Positions 1 to 13,900 of a DNA stretch of 64,000 nucleotides are shown here, piece by piece. The stretch's first letter is position 1, and each line of letters begins with the position of its first letter. Made by a program: the position numbers and the translations under genes. The notes beneath the pieces were generated by a model. That model made no database searches and was not told the origin of the DNA. It worked only from the letters and a program-made list of their open reading frames with translations. Source of the stretch: Eledone cirrhosa (lineage: Eukaryota); the NCBI GenBank assembly GCA_964016885.1, contig OZ024740.1:16306001-16370000 (forward strand). Direction: 5' to 3'.

Positions 1-817
1 TTCTGCCCACGTCTGATGTGGGTTTTTCTTGCCCACACATGTCCCAAAGCTTTTTGGATTTGGGACTCGGATGCCCGTTCCACTCGGCGCGATTTTACAT
101 TTATCGTTCGATACGACACGGTGCATAGGCGCCGATGCTCCATTTTATTAGGTGGGTGGGGTGGGGGGTGAGGCTTTCTTTACCATTGGCATTTTCTAAA
201 TCCTCCTGAGTTACCGTAAATGCTTCGAACTGTTTTGCTACTATTGCAAAACTGAGGGTCGTTTTTATAATGTCATTGTTGTTGTTGTTGCTATCGTTAT
301 TTGTGTTAATATTAATTTTAGTTTCAGTTGTGGTGGTGGTGACGTCAGTCGTCTTTGGTGGGGAAGAGTCCATTTTGCTTGATTTCATTTCGACATCACG
401 AGTTAATTTATTTTTTTCTTCTTTTGTTTCTGTTGTCGCGGTGGTGGTGGGGGTGGTGGTTGTCGCGGTGGTGGTGGTGGTGGAGGCTTTAACACCTGCA
501 GTCATTGGTAATGGCGGGAAATGAATGTCTGCCTGAGACAAATTTAAAATATTGCTACTGCTTATATTTTTTTTTGTGTTGGCAAACGTAGTAACATTTA
601 CAATGGTGGTGTCGGTGTGAGGTGTTAATTTTTTGAGGAAGGCTTTCAGCTGCTTGGTGCAGAGGTGAATTAGCCATTTTTTCAAAGAAATTTTTTGATA
701 ATAATAAAAGTTTAAATTTTGGGCACAAGGCCACAATCTTTTTGGGTGTCCTTTTCGGAAAACAATGTATGTGCGCTTATAAACACAGTTAACAATAAAA
801 TTTTCCATAAATGACAA
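1..817 (-). pseudogene. Frameshifted ORF1 (gag-like) of copy A with Thr/Asn low-complexity N-terminus
   Basis: ORF 101..817 shifts frame near 130-190 into the conserved ORF1 block at 1-128. The true start codon is uncertain. Confidence 0.65.
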
Positions 818-885
818 TTTTTAACAAACGGAAATAACAAACCTTTGCGGAGCTCACGATGATACGATTTACTACGTAGGTCGCC
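1..885 (-). mobile_element. Tx1/L1-type non-LTR retrotransposon, copy A: 5' end and ORF1 N-terminus (continues beyond the window start)
   Basis: The minus strand of 1-128 translates LCTVSYRTINVKSRRVERASESQIQKALGHVWARKTHIRRGQ, homologous to copy B ORF1 HCTVTYRTVSTKSRRVERATEAQLQKALGSVSQRKTHITRGK. SFAIVAKQFEAFTVTQEDLENA matches copy B FAGIAKNLETILITNGELQEA. The 5' boundary abuts (AAT)19. Confidence 0.8.

Positions 886-942
<57 letters not shown>
886..942 (+). repeat. (AAT)19 microsatellite between the copy A 5' end and the copy B 3' end
   Basis: Read directly: 57 nt of perfect AAT. Confidence 0.98.
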
Positions 943-944
<2 letters not shown>

Positions 945-1205
945 TTTCTTTATTAACCACAAGGGTTTACATAAAGTAGACATTAAGGACAGTGCAGGAC
1001 AATGCAGAACGGTACAAATGGGCATTTCTGCGTGTAAAAAACAAAAACAGAGGATGTAACAAAAATAACAATGAAAAATTCCCCAATAGGGGGGAGACTT
1101 CGGAGGGACATTTGTGGAGAAAGCCCAGTAAAAGGCCACAATGACCCTGACCACCAAGGCAAGTGCCCTCTCCCAGTTTTCCACCTTTAATTTACAGATA
1201 TATAC

Positions 1206-3678
1206 TCAGAGTAGCCCATTCACTCGGGCCATTCTTGCTTCTCTCACCCATCTTTCAACAAAATGCTGGGCAGAGAGCACTTCCCTCTCTACTCTGATTT
1301 TCCTTTTCAAATGAAATTTGAAAAAGTCAATCAGAGCATCACCGAAGAGGTAAGTGCTCGTCTTCAGCCCTTTCAAACGTGTCCACCATACTATCTCTTT
1401 CGCCATGGCCACCAGACAGATAAAAACTGCCTGCCCTTCCCGGCTAAAGGAGGAGGGCGGGGCGATCCTCACGATGGACTCAGATGATAGCCGGATACGT
1501 CCTAAACGCGACAGCAGGTGTTCGACATAAACCCACAAGTCAGCAATTTTCGGACACTGGACGAGTGCGTGCAGGACGGTTTCGTCGCCCTGCGCGCATC
1601 TCGGACATGCCCGGCTGACGGCACCTCCATGCCTGTAGAGTTTATCCCGAACTGGCAAAGCTCCTCGGTAGCACTGCCAGGCCAGGGATTTCTGGAAGTT
1701 GTCCATAGGCCCCGGCCCGAAAGTCCTTCCGAAGAGATTGGCTAGTTGATTTTCGTCGACGCCTAGAGTTTCTCCAAGTACGTCGTCGCTCTTCCCCTCC
1801 ACTAATCCCCTATAGAACGCCAAGGTGGAGTTTCCACCGATCACATTGCCCGATTGGTCGAGGGCTGTGAGCGCCTGAAGACATTCCAGTCTCCAAGCGC
1901 TCCCTCTCGGTCTTCGCTTGACCCAGGACTGCAGCTCCGTCAAGGAGACGAGCTGGGGAAAAACGTGTCTTGCAAACGGCGACCACACCTGATCACCATC
2001 GAGGAAGAGGCGGAGATGTCGTAGCCTGAGCGCGTGTCTGCGCATCATCAGCCACGGCATGCCCAGCCCTCCACGTAGCGGGTGTTGACAGCAGATGGAC
2101 CGCCTGACCACGTAGCGGGTGTTGTCCCTTCCACAAAAAGTGAAAGAGCAAACGCTCCAGCGCAGTCAGGCGAGGCTTAGGATAAGGTACGACGGTCAGG
2201 CGGTAGCAGATGACAGACGCAATGTACGCGTTAGCCACCTCCGCTTGACCTTTCAGGGATAGCTTCCTCTCGGCCCATTTCTGGGTGAGAGAAGCCACCC
2301 TGCTCGTCACCTCGTCCCAGTTTTTGTCCGTCTGGAGGTCCGGACCGAACCAGACCCCTAGCAATTTAACCGGTCCGTCCGTCCAGCGTCTGACGACGCT
2401 GTTGGACGGCATGGACCTGCCTCTCCAGGTGCCGAGCTGCAGGCCCACTGACTTTTCCTGGTTGATCATTGCTCCTGTCACCGCTTCGTATTCTCTTAGT
2501 GTAGTGCCGATCGCCTCGATGTGTTTGACGTTCGACACCACTCCGGTGACATCTTCCGCATATGCTGACACGGATCTTCCGCATCCTAGTTCGCGCGGGA
2601 CGCCCCTCGACGTCTCCAGTTTGTGCAGTAATGGCTCGAGAGTCAATATGTACAAGAGGGACGAGAGGGGACATCCTTGGCGGACCGAGCGCATGATGTT
2701 GAACGGTTCCGACAGGTGACCGTTCACTCTCACCATAGAGCAGATGTCGCTGTGCATGGCAGCGATCCAGCCTCTGAAGACGGGCCCAAAGCCAGCCGCC
2801 CTCAGGACTGCCGCTAGGTAACGATGGTCGACCCTATCGAAAGCTTTCGACTGATCTAAATTGATCAAGGACCCACCCGTGCCCGGTTCCCTAGTTACTC
2901 TCTCTACGGTGTATCGCATGAGGTGGAGGTTGTCGTGGATGGATCTGTCGGGAATGGCGCATGTCTGCGCCTCTCCCACCAGACCACCAACGAATTTGTG
3001 GTCCGTGTAGCTGACTATCTTGAATTGTGGACAGCCTATGCTAGACCTATCTATTTCCCTACAAAATACTCTATCTAGATATGATCTGGATGACCCTATG
3101 CGATTTGTCCAAGTCCACATTGGTACATTCGTGAAATCCATTCGGTACCTGTCAGACAGTTCAAAACGTCTGAGCAGGTTGGTGAGGCTCTTGCACCCTC
3201 CTTCCCTATCCACTAATCCCACACAATCCCAGCGTGCATCTAAGATCCCGTTCCAGTCGCCCACTAACACTAAAGAGCGGGACGTTCCAAGAAAAGTCTC
3301 CAGACGCCGGAAGAAATCAGGCCGCCCTGCTCCTGTCGGGGCATAGACGGCCACTAACCTGAAAGCTTGCCCGTCTCCGCTGGTCACGTCCAGCACCACC
3401 AACTTACCTTCTGGGTCCAGGAAGATGGCCCGTATGGCAAGATCCAAACTTCTCCGAAAAAGCACAGCAACTCCTCCCCCCGATCCCGGACGGCTGGGAG
3501 ATGCGTACACATCGTAGCCGCCGAAGATCGGTGCGAAGGCCCGTGCTTCGGAGATTCTGGTCTCGCTGATGGCCACTACATCTATGTTTAGTGACCTGAG
3601 GTCATTTAGCAGGTGGCCCTGCTTCCATGACGACCCCAAGCTACGCGCATTTATGCTGCCTATTCTGAGTGAGGTCAT
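1206..3678 (-). pseudogene. ORF2 of copy B: APE endonuclease + partial reverse transcriptase + CCHC finger (disrupted)
   Basis: APE motifs SINARSL, AISET, AVYAP, VGDWN, SYLDRVF, TDHKFV. RT motifs LDQSKAFDRVDH, VRQGCPLS, YAED (for YADD), KLLGVWF. C-terminal CPRC..ETVLHALVQC. In-frame deletion near 2,989 and frameshift near 2,110. Confidence 0.92.
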
Positions 3679-3712
3679 GTTGAAATGGGGTGGAAAAGAT
3701 GGGAAAGACCAC

Positions 3713-5320
3713 TTACCGTACTTTTCGTAGAGGAAGGATGGTTTCTCCATCCCTTTTCACTTGATCGTCTGGTGAAGGGACCGTTGAATCGTCCCTTCGG
3801 CTGGTCGTCGGCTCTTCTATGAGTATGTCCGAATATACTCTCCGGTTGAGAGTCCCTCCTAGGTCTCTGAAATCACCAACTGCGTTGGGGAATTTCGTTT
3901 TAATGTTCGTGTATTGTTTCTGTGCTATTCTTACCAGTCTTATGTTCGTTGGTGTTTTGATTGGTGCTGGTATTATGTAGTCGTGCTGTGAAATGTCTGT
4001 GTGTTCAATTATGTAAGTCATTAGTTTCTTATTGTTTGTATTTATTGCCGTGCATTTGTTTTTCTGGGGGTGGGGTGTGGTTCTGCTATTTTCTTGTCGT
4101 TGTTGCTGGGTGTGTGTGTTTTGTTGTTGTGTTTGCGGTGTTGGTGCTTGTGGTGGTGGTGTTGAAGGTGTTGTTGTTGTTGGCGGTGGGGTTGTCGCCG
4201 GTGGTGATGCTGGTGCTAGTGTGGGTGGTGATGGTGTTGGTGGTGTTGCTGCTGTGAGTCTCTTTGCAGTAGCCTTTACCCTTTTTTCATTTCTTCCTCC
4301 CTTTTCGAAGGCGACGATGCGCTGCTTCTGCGTTTGTGCCTTCTTGCGACCTTTTGCCATCCCTCTCCCACCTCACACTCCATATCTGATTCTGTGAGGT
4401 CGGGGAGGGGTACCAGCTCTACTCTTTCACTTGTTGTTGTTGGTGATGTTTGCAGTGGAGTCTCTGTTGGAGCTGCAGTTGGTATTACTGTTGTTGTTGT
4501 TAATACTTCCACTGCTGCTGCTGTTCTTGATTTCCGTGGCGTGGGTATGCGTGCCACGGACCTATCGTTCCTGGTTGCCGCTTGTCCCGTTGCTGGTAGC
4601 AGTGGAGCCGGTTTCGGAAGGAGGGAGGTTTTCTCCTTTCTCAGGGTCTTCTCGTTGCAGAAGGCCCTGAGGTGAGTCTTCGATCCACAGCGAAAGCATT
4701 TCGGGCGTTTGCCCTCAACACTTATAGGCCGTTATCGAAGTCTATCACATCTGGGATAGCTTCGATGCACTCCTGGTTGGTTTGGATTAACATCTCAATG
4801 GAGGTGCCGACCCAATCTTCGCTTACTCTTTTCTGTACTTGCAGTACAGTTGTTTTGTCCTCGATTCCGACGAGGACAGACGCGGCCAGCCAAGAAGGGG
4901 CCATCCCGGGGGGGGGGGGACGTGGGTCAGTTTGACCCTCACAATTTTTTGCCCGCAGTAGGAGGGCACCAACACCATTTCCTCGCTCCTTAGGGTCACT
5001 AAGGATTGAGCCTTTGCCTCCTGGGGTGTGGCAAAAAGCACGTCTACGGTGGCATATTTCTTGCCTCGGGTGATATGCGTTTTCCGCTGCGACACAGACC
5101 CTAAGGCTTTTTGTAGTTGAGCCTCTGTGGCTCTTTCAACCCTACGGGATTTTGTGCTTACTGTACGGTACGTGACTGTACAGTGCTGTTGGGTTTCGAA
5201 AGATTTTTCGGCTGCCTTGCAGATTGCTCGGTATCCGGTTTTCGTCCCTATCTTCTTCGCTTCCTGTAATTCCCCATTTGTTATGAGGATGGTTTCCAGG
5301 TTCTTTGCGATACCTGCAAA
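3713..5320 (-). pseudogene. ORF1 of copy B (gag-like, CCHC zinc knuckle, Pro/Thr-rich), broken by several frameshifts
   Basis: Pieces in ORFs 4823..5389 (part), 4722..4904, 4276..4557 and 3713..4360. The minus strand at 4657-4698 encodes CFRCGSKTHLRAFC (C-x2-C-x4-H-x4-C). Confidence 0.82.
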
Positions 5321-5717
5321 ATAGACCTGACCTGGTGGTTTTGGACAAGGAAAAAAGATCGTGCCTGATTGTGGATGTGGCCTGCCCATTCGACACGAGA
5401 GTGCAAGAGAAGGAGAGGGAGAAAATTAACCGATACCAGGACTTAAAGTGGGAGGTAAAAAGGATTTGGAACTGCCATGAAGTCAAAGTGGTCCCGATTG
5501 TCATAGGCGCACTAGGTACTATCTCAAAGAGTTTCCAGGGATGGTTAAAGAAAATTAGCCCCGCCCCGCTTTTTGGAACACTTCAAACGGCATGATTGCT
5601 GGGAACAGCAAGAACCCTCCGATACGTCCTGAATATCTGAGGCTGCAGGTAGTGGCTTGATATTCATTTCAACAAACTTTCCAGTTAACCAACATCAATG
5701 ACTGAGACTCAAAGAAC
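5320..5717 (+). mobile_element. 3' fragment of an R4/Dong-like non-LTR retrotransposon (restriction-like endonuclease domain + 3' UTR)
   Basis: NRPDLVVLDK..CLIVDVACPFD..KEREKINRYQDLK..VVPIVIGALGTI is a PD..D RLE domain. It reads past a premature TGA (5593-5595) as LLGTARTLRYVLNI* to 5640. A short 3' UTR runs into (AAT)9. Confidence 0.85.
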
Positions 5718-5744
5718 AATAATAATAATAATAATAATAATAAT
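5718..5744 (+). repeat. (AAT)9 microsatellite shared by the R4-like 3' end (left) and the copy C 3' end (right)
   Basis: Read directly. Confidence 0.97.
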
Positions 5745-7932
5745 GATTTCTTTATTGGCCACAAGGGCTGACATCAAGAAAAACATTACAGGTGGCACAG
5801 GACGGTACAGGACGGTACGATGTGGGTTTTGTGCGTGTAAAGATTTTTATTATTTATATAAGAAAAGAAAAAAAAAGGACATAGAAACATATATATATAT
5901 AAACAATAAAAATGAAAATTGAAACAATGAAAAATTCCCCAATGGGGGGGGGGGGGGACCTCCGAGGGTTACTCGTGGTGAAAACCTCAGAAAAGACCAC
6001 GGCTACCCTGACCACCAGGGCAAGCGCCCTCTCTCAATTTTTCCATTTCTCAAACTACAGACGTATATTCAGAGTGGTCCCGTTCACTCAGACCATTCTC
6101 GCTACATTCACCCACCTTTCAACAAACTTGCTAGAAGGCAGCACTTGCCTCTCTACCCTGATTTTCCTCTTCAAGTGAAACTTGAAAAAGTTAATTAGGG
6201 ATTCGCCGAAGAGGAAAGTGTCTGTCTTTAACCCTTTTAACCTTGTCCACCACACAATCTCTTTCGCCATGCCATGGCCACCAGGCAGATGTAAACCGCC
6301 TGCCCTTCCTCCTCGAAGGAAGACGGCGAGACCATCTGCACAATGGACTCAGTCGATAACCGGATCAGTCCTACACGCCTCTGCCACCCGGGCCCATTGG
6401 ACGGCTTTTGCCCCCTCGTGTTTCAGAGCACGCGCTCTAGCTCTGACAACGCAGCCTTTGTGTTTTGCGTTGAAGAATTGGTCGAGTGCCAATCTCGCCG
6501 CAAGCACGTCGGTTGCGATGCCTGTCCTAAACGCCTCTTCTAGCTTTCTGACTAACTCTCCCTCTACTCTATTTTCCTCTATCACTACTCCTTTGCTAAA
6601 CCTAATCGACTACTTTAATTGCCCTTTTCAGGGCGAACCACCACCTGTTGTTGACGACCACTCCCGTCAACGCCCGCTTAACTAATACGCTAATCCGGTC
6701 TCTGTAGGCTTTGCGCGCCGGGAAAGACGCGTTCAGCTTCCAGTAACCGGGCCCTTGTCTATGAAGTCTGTCTATGTCGATCTCACAGATCACAAATTTG
6801 TGGTCTGTGTAGTCGATGATTTTAAATTGTGGACAACTTATACTAGCCTTATCTAGTTCTCTGCAGAATACCCTATCAAGATGCGATCTGGATGACCCGA
6901 TGCGGTTTGTCCATGTCCACATTGGCACATTCGGGTGATCCAGTCGATACCTGTCAGACAATTCAAAACGTCTGAGCAGGTTGGTGAGGCTCTTGCACCC
7001 TCCTCCCCTATCCACTAGCCCACACAATCCCAGCGTGCATCCAAGATACCGTTCCAGTCGCCCACTAACACTAAAGAGCGGGACGTTAAAGAAAGGTCTC
7101 TAGACGTCTGAAGAAATCTGGCCGTCCTGCCCCTGTTGGGGCGTAGACGGCTACTAGCCTGAAAGCATTGCCTTCGCTGCCAGACACGTCCAGCACCACC
7201 GACTTACCCTCTGGGTCTAGGAAGATGGCCCGTATGGCGAGATCCAAGCCTCTCCGAAAAAGGAAGCCCCCCCCCCCGATCCTGGACGGCTGGGAAATGC
7301 GTATACATCGTAGCCGCCGAAGATCGGTGCGAAGGCTTGTGCTTCGGAGATTCTGGTCTCACTGATGGCTACCACATTTATGTTTAGTGACCTGAGGTCG
7401 TTGAGCAGGTGACCCTGCTTCCAAGATGACCCCAGGCCACGTACATTTATACTGCCTATTCTGAGTACGGCCTTGTTGGATGAGAAACGGGGCAAGTGAG
7501 AAAGGGTCACTTACCTTGATCGTGTGGTGAAGGGACAGTAGAACCGTCCCTTTCGCTGGTCATGGGTGTTTCCAAGAGGATGTCAGTGTATATCCTCTTG
7601 GTAACCGACCCTCTGAAGTCTCCAACTGGGGAATTTTTGTTTTAAAGGTTTGTACTGTTCTATTGAGATTTCAATGATGCTTATGTTTGTCGGGAGAGTT
7701 CTTGGTGTTGGTACGGTGTAGTAGTTTTTTCTGTGATGTTTGTGTGCTGCTTTATATATTGTATGAGTTCTTTTTTTTTGCCATGTTTATGGCTGTGTAC
7801 CTTTTGGGGGGAGGGGTGATTTTGTTGCTGTTTCCTTCTTGTTGCTGTTTGGTGTGTGTGTCTTGTTTTGTTTGCGTTTTGTTGTTTTTGGTGATGCTGG
7901 TGGTGGTGTGGTCGTTGTTGGCGGTTGCGCGT
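5745..7932 (-). mobile_element. Tx1/L1-type copy C: 5'-truncated, RT-less deletion derivative
   Basis: ORF1 C-terminus, APE domain (LRIGSINVRGL..AISET..YTDHKFV), linker GPGYWKLN, then a jump near 6,378 to the ORF2 C-terminus (MAKEIVWWTRLKG..). The 3' UTR is homologous to copy B. (AAT)n lies on both sides. Confidence 0.9.
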
Positions 7933-7933
7933 T

Positions 7934-7948
7934 AATAATAATAATAAT
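7934..7948 (+). repeat. (AAT)5 microsatellite between the copy C 5' end and the SINE 3' end
   Basis: Read directly. Confidence 0.95.
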
Positions 7949-8154
7949 GATTTCTACTCTAAGCACAAGGCCAGAAATTTGGGGAGAGGGGAAAATCTAT
8001 TAAATCGGCTCCAGTACATTACTGGTATTTTATTTTATCGACCCCGTAAAGATGAACGGCAAAGCTAACCGCGGTGGAATTTTAATGTAAAGGATCATAA
8101 TTTTATGCCGCAAAGCATAGTGTCCGACGCTCTATCGATACTACCAATCCACCC
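7949..8154 (-). mobile_element. tRNA-derived SINE, near full length
   Basis: The reverse complement aligns with the SINE at 9287-9480 (head, central ..TTCATCTTTACGGGGTCGATAAAAT.. block, tail CCTTGTGCTTAGAGTAGAAATC(ATT)n). Confidence 0.85.
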
Positions 8155-8172
8155 AATGAAAATTATTGTGGC

Positions 8173-8214
8173 AGGTGCACTACAACTCATCAAAGGTGCA
8201 CTACAACTCATCAA
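8173..8214 (+). repeat. 21-bp tandem duplication (AGGTGCACTACAACTCATCAA x2)
   Basis: Read directly. Confidence 0.9.
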
Positions 8215-8329
8215 AAGTTCATGTATATTGCATAGAATAATGTACAAATGTCAGGAAAAGGAGAAGTGTATGAGTCAAGATGCACATACAAACAGACAGA
8301 CCCCCCCCCCCACACACACACACACATGA

Positions 8330-8915
8330 GTGGCGTGTGTGTGTATGGAGGGAGAATATCAGGTGTAGTGCTGACGAATTTCGGGAAGCGTGAAGTTTTT
8401 AAAGGATGCAGTGTCTCAACAGCTAACAACTGATGCAGGCAGTTTGATCCATGCTTCAGCAACTCTGAGCGTTAAACAATGTTTCCAAAAGTCATGGCAG
8501 CTGTGCTGTTTTCTGACTTTGTAAGCATGTCCATAGGTGTTAGTCACATGGAAATCAAAAAGATACTCATGGTTGTTGTTGGCAAGATGGTTAACAATCT
8601 TGTGGGTGTCTACCAAGTCAGTTGCCAGATGTCGGAGCTTCAATGGGAAGCAAGGTATTCAGAAAATGGTAGATGCCTGATGGAGGTTATTCGCTTAGTT
8701 GCACGTCTCTGAACAATTTCCAGGAGGTCAAATATCCTGAGCAAGATAAGAGTTCCAGGCTGGTGATACAAATTCTAACTATGGCCACACCATAGCTATA
8801 TACAACTTTAAATATATTGGAGAGCGGCTGACAAAGGTCTTACTGAGTGATGTTAAGCCACCCTCGGCCTTCTTGAAAATTTTAGAGATGTGCTCTGTCC
8901 AATACAAAACTCTAC
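8330..8915 (-). mobile_element. CR1-clade LINE 3' fragment (degenerate)
   Basis: Minus strand: LKLYIAMVWP*LEFVSPAWNSYLAQDI/DLLEIVQRRA..DLVDTHKIV..TYGHAYKV..LRVAEAWIKLPASVVS, the typical CR1 ORF2 C-terminus, with stops and frameshifts. Ends are approximate. Confidence 0.8.
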
Positions 8916-9286: not shown

Positions 9287-9480
9287 GGCGGAGGTTTGGC
9301 AGTATCGGTAGAGGGTCGGACGCCATGCTTTGATGCATAGAGTTACGGCCCTTGCCATTCTGAGTTCAAATCCTGCCGAGGTTAAACTTTGCCTTTCATC
9401 CTTACGGGGTCGATAAAATAAAGTACTAGTAATACATTGGGATAATTGCTGGCCTTGTGCCAAACGTAGAAACAATTATT
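9287..9480 (+). mobile_element. tRNA-derived SINE with Pol III A/B boxes
   Basis: A box TGGCAGTATCGG (~9297), B box GTTCAAATCC (~9364), central GCCTTTCATCCTTACGGGGTCGATAAAATAAGTAC, tail CCTTGTGCCAAACGTAGAAACAATTATT. It lies between 20-bp direct repeats. Confidence 0.88.
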
Positions 9481-9548
9481 TTACGATAAAATAAAGTACC
9501 AGTTATGGACTGGGGTCGATTTAATCGACTTTCCCCTCCCCTAAATTT
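9481..9548 (+). mobile_element. Remnant of an older SINE of the same family, interrupted by the 9287 copy
   Basis: CGATAAAATAAAGTACCAGTTATGGACTGGGGTCGATTTAATCGACTTTCCCCTCCCC matches the body of the 7949-8154 copy. A degenerate upstream part lies at ~9233-9262. Confidence 0.65.
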
Positions 9549-10850: not shown

Positions 10851-10869
10851 ATGCATGTATAAGATAACT

Positions 10870-10922
10870 GTTTCTACTTTAGGCACAAGGCCAGCAAATT
10901 ACCCAGTGCATTACTGGTACTT
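10870..10922 (-). mobile_element. SINE 3' fragment directly abutting the satellite
   Basis: Reverse complement AAGTACCAGTAATGCACTGGGTAATTTGCTGGCCTTGTGCCTAAAGTAGAAAC vs 9421-9473 AAGTACTAGTAATACATTGGGATAATTGCTGGCCTTGTGCCAAACGTAGAAAC. Confidence 0.85.
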
Positions 10923-13900
10923 TAGACAGAGGTTTACTGGGAGACATCAGTGTAAATATGGTGGCTTCTAGACAAAGCTTTACAGGGAGACATCAGTGTA
11001 AATATGGTGGCTTCTAGACAGAGCTTTACAGGGAGACATCAGTGTAAATATGGTGGCTTCTAGACAGAGCTTTACAGGGAGTCATCAGTGTAAAAATGGT
11101 TGCTTCTGGACAGAGGTTTACAGGGAGACATCAGTGTAAATATGGTGGCTTCTGAACAGAGGTTTACAGGGAGACATCAGTGTAAATATGTTGGCTTCTA
11201 GACAGAGGTTTACAGGGAGACATCAGTGTAAATAAGGTGGCTTCTGGATAGAGGTTTACAGGGAGACATCAGTGTAAATATGGTGGCTTCTGGACAGAGG
11301 TTTACAGGGAGACATCAGTGTAAATATGGTGGCTTCTGGACAGAGCTTTACAGGGAGACATCAGTGTAAATATGGTGGCTTCTGGACAGAGCTTTACAGG
11401 GAGACATCAGTGTAAATATGGTGGCATCTGGACAAAGGTTTAAAGGGACACATCAGTGTAAATATGATGGCTTCTAGACAGAGCTTTACAGTGAGACATC
11501 AGTGTAGATATGGTGGCTTCTAGACAGAGCTTTACAGGGAGACATCAGTGTAAATATGGTGGCTTCTAGACAGAGCTTTACAGGGAGACATCAGTGTAAA
11601 TATGGTGGCTTCTGGATAGAGGTTTACGGGGAGACATCAGTGTAAATATGGTGGCTTCTGGACAGAGGTTTACAGGTAGACATCAGTGTAAATATGGTGG
11701 CTTCTAGACAGAGGTTTACAGGGAGATATCAGTGTAAATATGGTGGCTTCTGGACAGAGGTTTATAGGGAGACATCAGTGTAAATATGGTGGCTTCTGGA
11801 AAGAGCCTTACAGGGAGATATCAGTGAAAATATGGTGGCTTCTGGACAGAGATTTACAGGGAGACATCAGTGTAAATATGGTGGCTTCTGGACAGAGTTT
11901 TACAGGGAGACATCAGTGTAAATATGGTGGCTTCTAGACAGAGGTTTACAGGGAGACATCAGTGTAAATATGGTGGCTTCTGGACAGAGGTTTACAGGGA
12001 GCCATCAGTGTAAATATGGTGGCTTCTGGACAGAGGTTTACAGGGAGACATTAGTGTAAGTATGGTGGCTTCTGGACAGAGCTTTACAGGGAGACATCAG
12101 TGTAAATATGTTGGCTTCTGGACAGAAGTTTACAGAGAGAATCAGTATAAATATGGTGGCTTCTGGACAGAGGTTTACAGGGAGACATCAGTGTAAATAT
12201 GGTGGCTTCTAGATAGAGGTTTACAGGGAGACATCAGTGTAAATATGGTGGCTTCTGGACAGAGCTTTACAGGGAGATATCAGAGTAAATATCGTGGCTT
12301 CTAGACAAAGATTTACAGGGAGACATCAGTGTAAATATGGTGGCTTCTCGACAGAGGTTTACATAGAGATATCAGTGTAAATATGGTGGGTTCTGGACAG
12401 AGGTTTATAGGGAGACATCAGTGTAAATATGGTGGCTTTTGGACAGAGGTTTACAGGTAGACATCAGTGTAAATATAGTGGCTTCTAGACAGAGGTTTAC
12501 AGGGAGATATCAGTGTAAATATGGTGGCTTCTGGACAGAGGTTTATAGGGAGACATCAGTGTAAATATGGTGGCTTCTGGAAAGAGCCTTACAGGGAGAT
12601 ATCAGTGAAAATATGGTGGCTTCTGGACAGAGATTTACAGGGAGACATCAGTGTAAATATGTTGGCTTCTGGACAGAAGTTTACAGAGAGAATCAGTATA
12701 AATATGGTGGCTTCTGGACAGAGGTTTACAGGGAGACATCAGTGTAAATATGGTGGCTTCTAGATAGAGGTTTACAGGGAGACATCAGTGTAAATATGGT
12801 GGCTTCTGGACAGAGCTTTACAGGGAGATATCAGAGTAAATATCGTGGCTTCTAGACAAAGATTTACAGGGAGACATCAGTGTAAATATGGTGGCTTCTG
12901 GACAGAGGTTTACAGGGAGATATCAGTGTAAATATGGTGGCTTCTGGACAGAGGTTTATAGGGAGACATCAGTGTAAATATGGTGGCTTCTGGACAGAGG
13001 TTTACAGGTAGACATCAGTGTAAATATGGTGGCTTCTAGACAGAGGTTTACAGGGAGATATCAGTGTAAATATGGTGGCTTCTGGACAGAGGTTTATAGG
13101 GAGACATCAGTGTAAATATGGTGGCTTCTGGAAAGAGCCTTACAGGGAGATATCAGTGAAAATATGGTGGCTTCTGGACAGAGATTTACAGGGAGACATC
13201 AGTGTAAATATGGTGGCTTCTGGACAGAGTTTTACAGGGAGACATCAGTGTAAATATGGTGGCTTCTAGACAGAGGTTTACAGGGAGACATCAGTGTAAA
13301 TATGGTGGCTTCTGGACAGAGGTTTACAGGGAGCCATCAGTGTAAATATGGTGGCTTCTGGACAGAGGTTTACAGGGAGACATTAGTGTAAGTATGGTGG
13401 CTTCTGGACAGAGCTTTACAGGGAGACATCAGTGTAAATATGTTGGCTTCTGGACAGAAGTTTACAGAGAGAATCAGTATAAATATGGTGGCTTCTGGAC
13501 AGAGGTTTACAGGGAGACATCAGTGTAAATATGGTGGCTTCTAGATAGAGGTTTACAGGGAAACATCAGTGTAAATATGGTGGCTTCTGGACAGAGCTTT
13601 ACAGGGAGATATCAGAGTAAATATCGTGGCTTCTAGACAAAGCTTTACAGGGAGACATCAGTGTAAATATGGTGGCTTCTGGACAGAGGTTTACAGGGAG
13701 ATATCAGTGTAAATATGGTGGCTTCTGGATAGAGCTTTACAGGGAGATATCAGAGTAAATATGGTGGGTTCTAGACAGAGGTTTACAGGGAGACATCAGT
13801 GTAAATAGTGTGGCTTCTGGACAGAGGTTTATAGGGAGACATCAGTGTAAATATGGTGGCTTCTGGACAGAGTTTTACAGGGAGACATCAGTGTAAATAT

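Follow-up and report, generated by a model that had tools for sequence, protein, structure and literature searches.

One-way insertion of an L1-group LINE family in (ATT)n repeats of Eledone cirrhosa, and reuse of these repeats by several elements

A young L1-group LINE family of roughly 10,000 copies shows family-wide insertion specificity for (ATT)n in the genome of Eledone cirrhosa. Its copies sit one-way in the repeat, likely by way of an APE nick, and the repeats are reused by several elements. The probability of this reading is estimated at roughly 0.8. The evidence comes from a train of elements in the window (the whole 64 kb stretch of DNA analyzed) and from the junctions of full-length and truncated copies across the genome.

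The train in the window and its LINE family

The window contains a train of elements separated by three (AAT)n runs, which are the only (AAT/ATT)n runs of at least three units in the whole 64 kb. The order given in the preliminary description, A-(AAT)19-B-R4-(AAT)9-C-(AAT)5-SINE, with A, B, C and the SINE all on the minus strand, was confirmed (Table 1). The same holds for the 3' ends ..AGAAATC(ATT)n, read in B, C and the SINE, and for the contact of the 5' ends of A (885) and C (7932) with the runs at 886-942 and 7934-7948.

Table 1. Features of the train, in window positions.
Feature	Positions	Strand	Remarks
Copy A, 5' part of full-length LINE	1..885	-	5874 bp, runs off the window to -4988
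SINE 3'-end relic (hairpin and degenerate ATT) in A-type 5'UTR	698..733	-	Compared side by side with SINE ends
(AAT)19 separating copy B 3' end from copy A 5' end	886..942	.	
Copy B	943..5320	-	B-type ORF1, 5'-truncated at 5320; 3'UTR 943-1205
3' hairpin, loop CUUGU, 15 nt ahead of ATT	955..967	-	Equal loop and spacing in copy C and SINE, compensated stems
Dong-like (R4 clade) 3' fragment, 5'-truncated, restriction-like endonuclease end	5321..5717	+	
(AAT)9, tail-to-tail, common to Dong-like piece and copy C	5718..5744	.	
Copy C, from an older sister subfamily, 77-79% identical to A	5745..7932	-	5'-truncated in ORF1 3' region
(AAT)5 between SINE 3' end and truncated 5' end of copy C	7934..7948	.	
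SINE	7949..8154	-	84% to nearest copy
Further repeated element, 3' end carrying an ATT stub	8155..8900	-	Adjoins SINE

Copy A carries a 5'UTR at 678-885, an ORF1 start codon (ATG) at 677 and frameshifted ORFs, and its 3' terminus, at window position -4988, lies in (ATT)9(ATC)2. Copy B is 95-99% identical to it over ORF2 and the 3'UTR. The ORF2 of copy B, read from the ATG at 3678, encodes APE, RT and zf-RVT domains and has a deletion of about 930 bp at 2990-2993. Its truncation point falls within ORF1, where it meets the Dong-like piece head-to-head, with one base in common and without ATT. This 5' junction has no repeat, and the missing end was likely removed by the truncated insertion of Dong or by a later deletion. 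Copy C has an ORF2 deletion of about 2 kb near 6375 relative to copy A.

Among the examined loci, nearest-copy identity rises from the SINE (84%) through C (95-96%), B (97.8%) and Dong (98.7%) to A (98.8%). This fits the likely order of insertion, in which the SINE came first, C second, B and Dong next and A last. The element at 8155-8900, CR1-like by a motif only, is probably the sequence into which the train originally inserted. Just past this fragment, at 9290-9548, two more SINE pieces were observed in opposite orientations. Further on, at 10925-64000 (~53 kb), lies a 46-bp satellite of about 1155 copies with 90% matches and no ATT run, which begins abruptly within the 3' part of a SINE (10860-10924). 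The preliminary description had linked the arrays to this satellite block. Such a link was not found, as copies occur all along the large contigs and the 53 kb of satellite lack an ATT run; the position of the satellite next to the train looks incidental.

The genome contains 9501 exact 3' ends of the A and B subfamilies. An intact ORF2 of 1139 aa was identified in six examined loci, with the domains PF03372 (APE), PF00078 (RT) and PF13966 (zf-RVT). This architecture, with an N-terminal APE, an RT, a C-terminal Cys domain and no RNase H, is that of the L1 group, and the best solved relative is human L1 ORF2 (E 1.7e-52, compared with 3e-21 for R2). Elements of the Tx1 clade have two ORFs, the first with a CCHC knuckle. 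In both A and B types, a CX2CX4HX4C (CCHC) knuckle is visible in ORF1, and no Pfam family scored above the cut-off there. Among named proteins, that of Argonauta hians is closest (73%), and protein searches with ORF2, together with cluster names, returned generic names only, with no named Tx1 protein among the matches. In an RT tree of 23 rows, 22 of them hand-picked from the matches, ORF2 pairs with an Argonauta protein (100/99); this pair is sister to six unnamed proteins and lies apart from the fish, turtle and lancelet rows. On these sequence features, the family likely belongs to the Tx1 clade.

A- and B-type copies combine different 5'UTRs and ORF1s (36% amino acid identity) with nearly one ORF2. 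The different modules can be seen in the window at 1-885 and 4200-5320, as well as in L168 and L081, and more divergent 5' types were observed in L238 and L241. A weak MBD match (PF01429; E 0.008-0.018, under the Pfam cut-off) was also observed around residues 205-273 of ORF1 in L168, L181 and L081, which cover both types of ORF1.

Insertion junctions across the genome

A-type 5' ends lie immediately after ATTATTATT, in one register, in 1570 of 1687 cases genome-wide (93%), counted as exact genomic matches of the A-type 5' 21-mer. For B-type 5' ends the figure is 2330 of 2413 (96.6%), while ATTATTATT occupies 0.09% of positions in flanks (193 in 218,389). The preliminary description had held that mostly non-AAT 5' junctions would speak against its proposal; the exact ATT junctions at 93% and 96.6% point the other way. 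Moreover, the five exceptions in the first 100 A-type places are ATT runs too, four with one imperfect unit and one with a register shift.

Both ends were analyzed in 76 full-length copies, excluding copies with no recognizable 3' end and A-set copies under 5 kb. At least four in-register ATT units precede the 5' end in 75 of the 76. The flanking runs have a median of 14 units at the 5' side and 11.5 at the 3' side, and the two lengths are uncorrelated (rho 0.004). Upstream of the 5' ATT run, no duplication of at least 6 bases was found among the 76 copies.

The search for truncated copies started with the first 100 exact 3' ends along C1, 62 of which had no exact 5' end upstream; 60 were examined. 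After exclusion of full-length, internally rearranged and other-subfamily copies and duplicated loci, 30 were kept. ATTATT was present at the 5' junction in 16 of the 30 (background 2.0%, p about 1e-19) and (ATT)4 in 11 (background 0.5%). With 11 copies added from a score-ranked set, ATTATT was observed in 23 of 41. The repeat was reversed at a single 5' junction of the 30, which bears out the fixed orientation proposed earlier. Fourteen of the 30 lack ATTATT at the 5' junction, mostly with no duplication found, and in our reading these may represent deletions or later rearrangements. The rule of Kojima 2015 treats a Tx1 family as target-specific when one sequence type occurs in more than 20% of flanks (PMC4494074). 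The present family exceeds this value, with 93-97% for full-length and 53% for truncated copies.

(CTT)n was observed at 2 of the 30 truncated junctions and otherwise only beside (ATT)n. Junctions often have tracts in which (CTT)n and (ATT)n are compounded (L090, L092, L163, L251, L254), and some copies have a single ATT followed by (CTT)n at the 3' end.

Eleven informative target duplications of 12-20 bp begin at the first base past the 3' end of the element, that is, at offset 0. All of them start at ATTAT, preceded by T or C. They were found in 5 of the 41 truncated copies (L067, L075, L082, L096, L262) and in 6 of 14 further copies selected for interrupted 3' runs (L397, L403, L407, L409, L415 by script; L395 by eye). 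Only 247 of the 9501 3' ends continue with ATTAT and a base other than T. The offset-0 duplications imply that at those sites the apparent tail is target DNA and that no tail was added by the element. What the preliminary description called an (ATT)n tail is therefore at least partly target sequence.

SINE and Dong-like elements at the same repeat

The SINE and the LINE copies in the window have 17 of their last 22 bases alike. The CUUGU loop lies 15 nt ahead of ATT in the SINE and in the LINE subfamilies (180 and 131 ends, the rows being related), and stem pairs are exchanged between the LINE subfamilies and the SINE, C-G against G-C and A-U against G-C. The hairpin is small, with LINE-end z values of -1.7 and -2.1, and at the SINE end it is not the best fold. 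A duplication beginning at the same ATT was seen by eye in about 14 of 30 SINE copies. These copies mostly occupy short ATTAT motifs and rarely long tracts, so the nick motif may itself be short and the bias toward long tracts may come later. The SINE was likely mobilized by the lineage of the LINE, and other LINE partners are also possible. The SINE, which presumably resembles octopus SINEs, gave no tRNA prediction in ARAGORN. For SINEU and Tx1-Mar, the movement of a SINE by a Tx1 family was deduced from a common target (PMC4494074). Here, in contrast, the link is drawn from the 3' hairpin with its compensated stem and from junction geometry, and the target of the SINE appears looser than that of the LINE.

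The A-type 5' end was detected in contigs of four other organisms, and the matching records stop at the repeat. Contigs of other organisms align on 698-733 of the A-type 5'UTR only, and several go on as SINE interior. In L248, a truncated LINE copy meets a genomic SINE precisely at this relic, which suggests homology-guided joining or recombination.

Relatives of the R4 piece in the window have a PD..D endonuclease motif alongside RT and CCHC, and they end in (AAT)n. From these motifs, read in the ORF of the relatives, and from the (AAT)n flanks, the piece at 5321-5717 is classified as Dong-like (R4 clade). (AAT)n in Dong's own sense was present at 9 of the 18 upstream breakpoints listed. In L372, a Dong-like copy joins the interior of an antisense LINE without a repeat, like the junction in the window. 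Dong (R4 clade; B. mori, A. gambiae, B. glabrata) is TAA-specific (PMC3812793). Dong and the LINE family have one repeat in common, and in this genome a Dong-like family is present in tracts that also hold the LINE. Dong faces the opposite way and uses a restriction-like endonuclease, whereas the LINE family has an APE.

The neighbors of the 76 full-length copies were counted by motif, which makes the counts lower bounds. Upstream, 18 copies adjoin a family 3' end, 5 a SINE and 3 a CR1-like end. Downstream, 18 stand tail-to-tail with Dong, and in 7 another copy comes next.

Proposed mechanism, alternatives and related systems

The junctions are consistent with a model in which the likely site of the APE nick is on the AAT strand, opposite Y|ATTAT. 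The nick would expose an AAT-reading 3' end able to pair with a short AUU at the 3' terminus of the RNA, and this pairing, beside the CUUGU hairpin, would prime reverse transcription. The next step would leave the geometry seen in several truncated copies, a duplication of 12-20 bp right after the element and no tail. Full-length RNAs would carry a 5' (AUU)n leader, so that the cDNA end could pair in register upstream and yield ATT|G. The flanking repeat, which persists on both sides, is reused by the family itself, its older sisters and, on the opposite strand, the Dong-like element; the SINE would reuse it through the enzyme of the LINE.

Full-length junctions invariably read ATT|G, whereas the duplications differ in length and do not come in multiples of three. 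Because the register is uniform though these lengths vary, the sequences suggest a 5' (AUU)n leader borne on the full-length RNA. If the 5' repeat is RNA-borne, the figure of 93-97% would overstate the specificity of the endonuclease. A comparable case is described for R2, where elements whose RNA is cleaved upstream of their 5' end have uniform junctions ascribed to target sequence that is carried on the RNA and pairs with the target (PMC3774820). Both R2 and the LINE have uniform 5' junctions explicable in this way, although R2 targets 28S rDNA via a ribozyme (PMC3774820) and the leader of the LINE is putative. In 16 long copies with interrupted 3' ends, 800 bp were inspected at the expected 5' position. 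A 5' end, matched to its 3' end by distance only, lay in nine of these loci, in each case after about 11 or more ATT units, and no non-ATT duplication abutted the element in those nine full-length 5' ends. At L432/L413, the 5' end comes after (ATT)13, itself preceded by a duplicated piece of 17 bp, and the 3' side has (ATT)8.

As a tentative extension, somewhat less probable than its opposite, the RNA of the LINE may carry the (ATT)n target at its 5' end and only long tracts may complete full-length insertions, each of which would lengthen the tract. The 5'UTR and ORF1 would be captured from upstream neighbors, for which the SINE relic in the A-type leader is cited, and a guild of LINE, Dong and SINE would make and maintain much of the long ATT microsatellite.

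Alternatively, the element might build its own (ATT)n flanks through a 5' leader and reiterative priming, with an endonuclease that needs just a short ATTAT. It would then produce microsatellites more than seek them. This account is doubtful, yet it would explain the invariant register at full-length junctions, the use of short motifs by SINEs, the arrangement at L432/L413 and flanking runs that sum to about 26 units, more than the mean of 11 in typical runs (6-32 units). However, truncated copies at off-repeat sites add no 3' ATT, and truncated copies, which lack the leader, still adjoin (ATT)4 in 11 of 30 cases. A duplication followed by the repeat was found in only one of 85 full-length copies and may be a tandem duplication.

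The reading favored here, one-way insertion into repeats that are then reused, also accounts for the trains. The genome contains 44,308 (ATT)6 runs starting after a non-T base, the class of runs that was sampled. A family 3' end opens 8 of the first 30 long runs, by eye, with a ninth doubtful. The tandem rate of 18/76 does not differ from this share of 8/30 (Fisher p=0.80), so a preference for own tails was rejected and the trains follow from the availability of ATT runs. The earlier notion of self-seeding therefore stands insofar as the repeat is left on both sides and reused, and falls insofar as it requires that own tails be preferred.

Trains could also arise by template jumping in one reverse-transcription event or by unequal crossing-over. 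An exact A or B 5' end follows immediately after 12 of the first 100 3' ends, and arrays with spacing of about 6 kb exist. This origin is nevertheless improbable, since neighbors belong to different subfamilies and are of different age (with a C-type copy or a SINE located upstream of A), the downstream member is sometimes truncated (copy C; L234, L282) and the tandem rate matches availability. Several element types in the genome end in ATT, but the 5' junction counts, the offset-0 duplications and the backgrounds of 0.09-2% refute the notion that (ATT)n is merely a 3' tail and the clustering a matter of chance or passive accumulation, to which we attach next to no probability.

An array longer than that of the window was observed at G000:C1:55429679-55455624, with five B-type 5' ends on one strand at a spacing of 6-7 kb. 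Contigs of four runs were compared with copy A and its flank, and no joint across the element was found in these assemblies, in which repeats are skipped and copies collapse.

As the preliminary description stated, microsatellite-targeting Tx1 families are known. They include Kibi in (TC)n, Koshi in (TTC)n and crocodilian families in (TTCC)n/(TTTC)n (PMC4494074, PMC3812793, PMC4640811). These families and the LINE described here are alike in being APE-type and inserted specifically in a microsatellite; the present one differs in its (ATT)n target and mollusc host. The (TC)n or (TTC)n target of Kibi and Koshi was considered and rejected for the LINE, whose junctions are (ATT)n. In Octopus vulgaris, 13 L1-Tx1 and 5 Dong-R4 families are listed as recently active (PMC13282606). 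The word "target" is absent from the main text of that paper. L1-Tx1 and Dong families are included in papers on octopus and mollusc repeats, and the passages concerned give no target (PMC13282606, PMC9115989, PMC10294476, PMC4758252, PMC3747384). In the literature searched, a scope outside which Repbase and the 2015 target alignments fall, no ATT-, AAT- or TAA-specific Tx1 family was found. The microsatellite-specific lifestyle is already known, and what is apparently added is (ATT)n as a target of an APE LINE.

With (ATT)n, the targets of microsatellite-specific APE LINEs would gain a further member. The two enzymes associated with this repeat, an APE for one strand and a restriction-like endonuclease for the other, form a natural pair for studying the evolution of specificity, and the copies with intact ORF2 make the nick site and the leader model directly testable. 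In the small sample of long ATT runs, about a quarter open at the 3' end of a family member, and ATT markers of the genome would therefore often be transposon junctions. Finally, a recurring repeat end was observed past the 3' ATT run in 6 of the 76 full-length copies (L073, L074, L180, L271, L281, L287), possibly another member of the guild.
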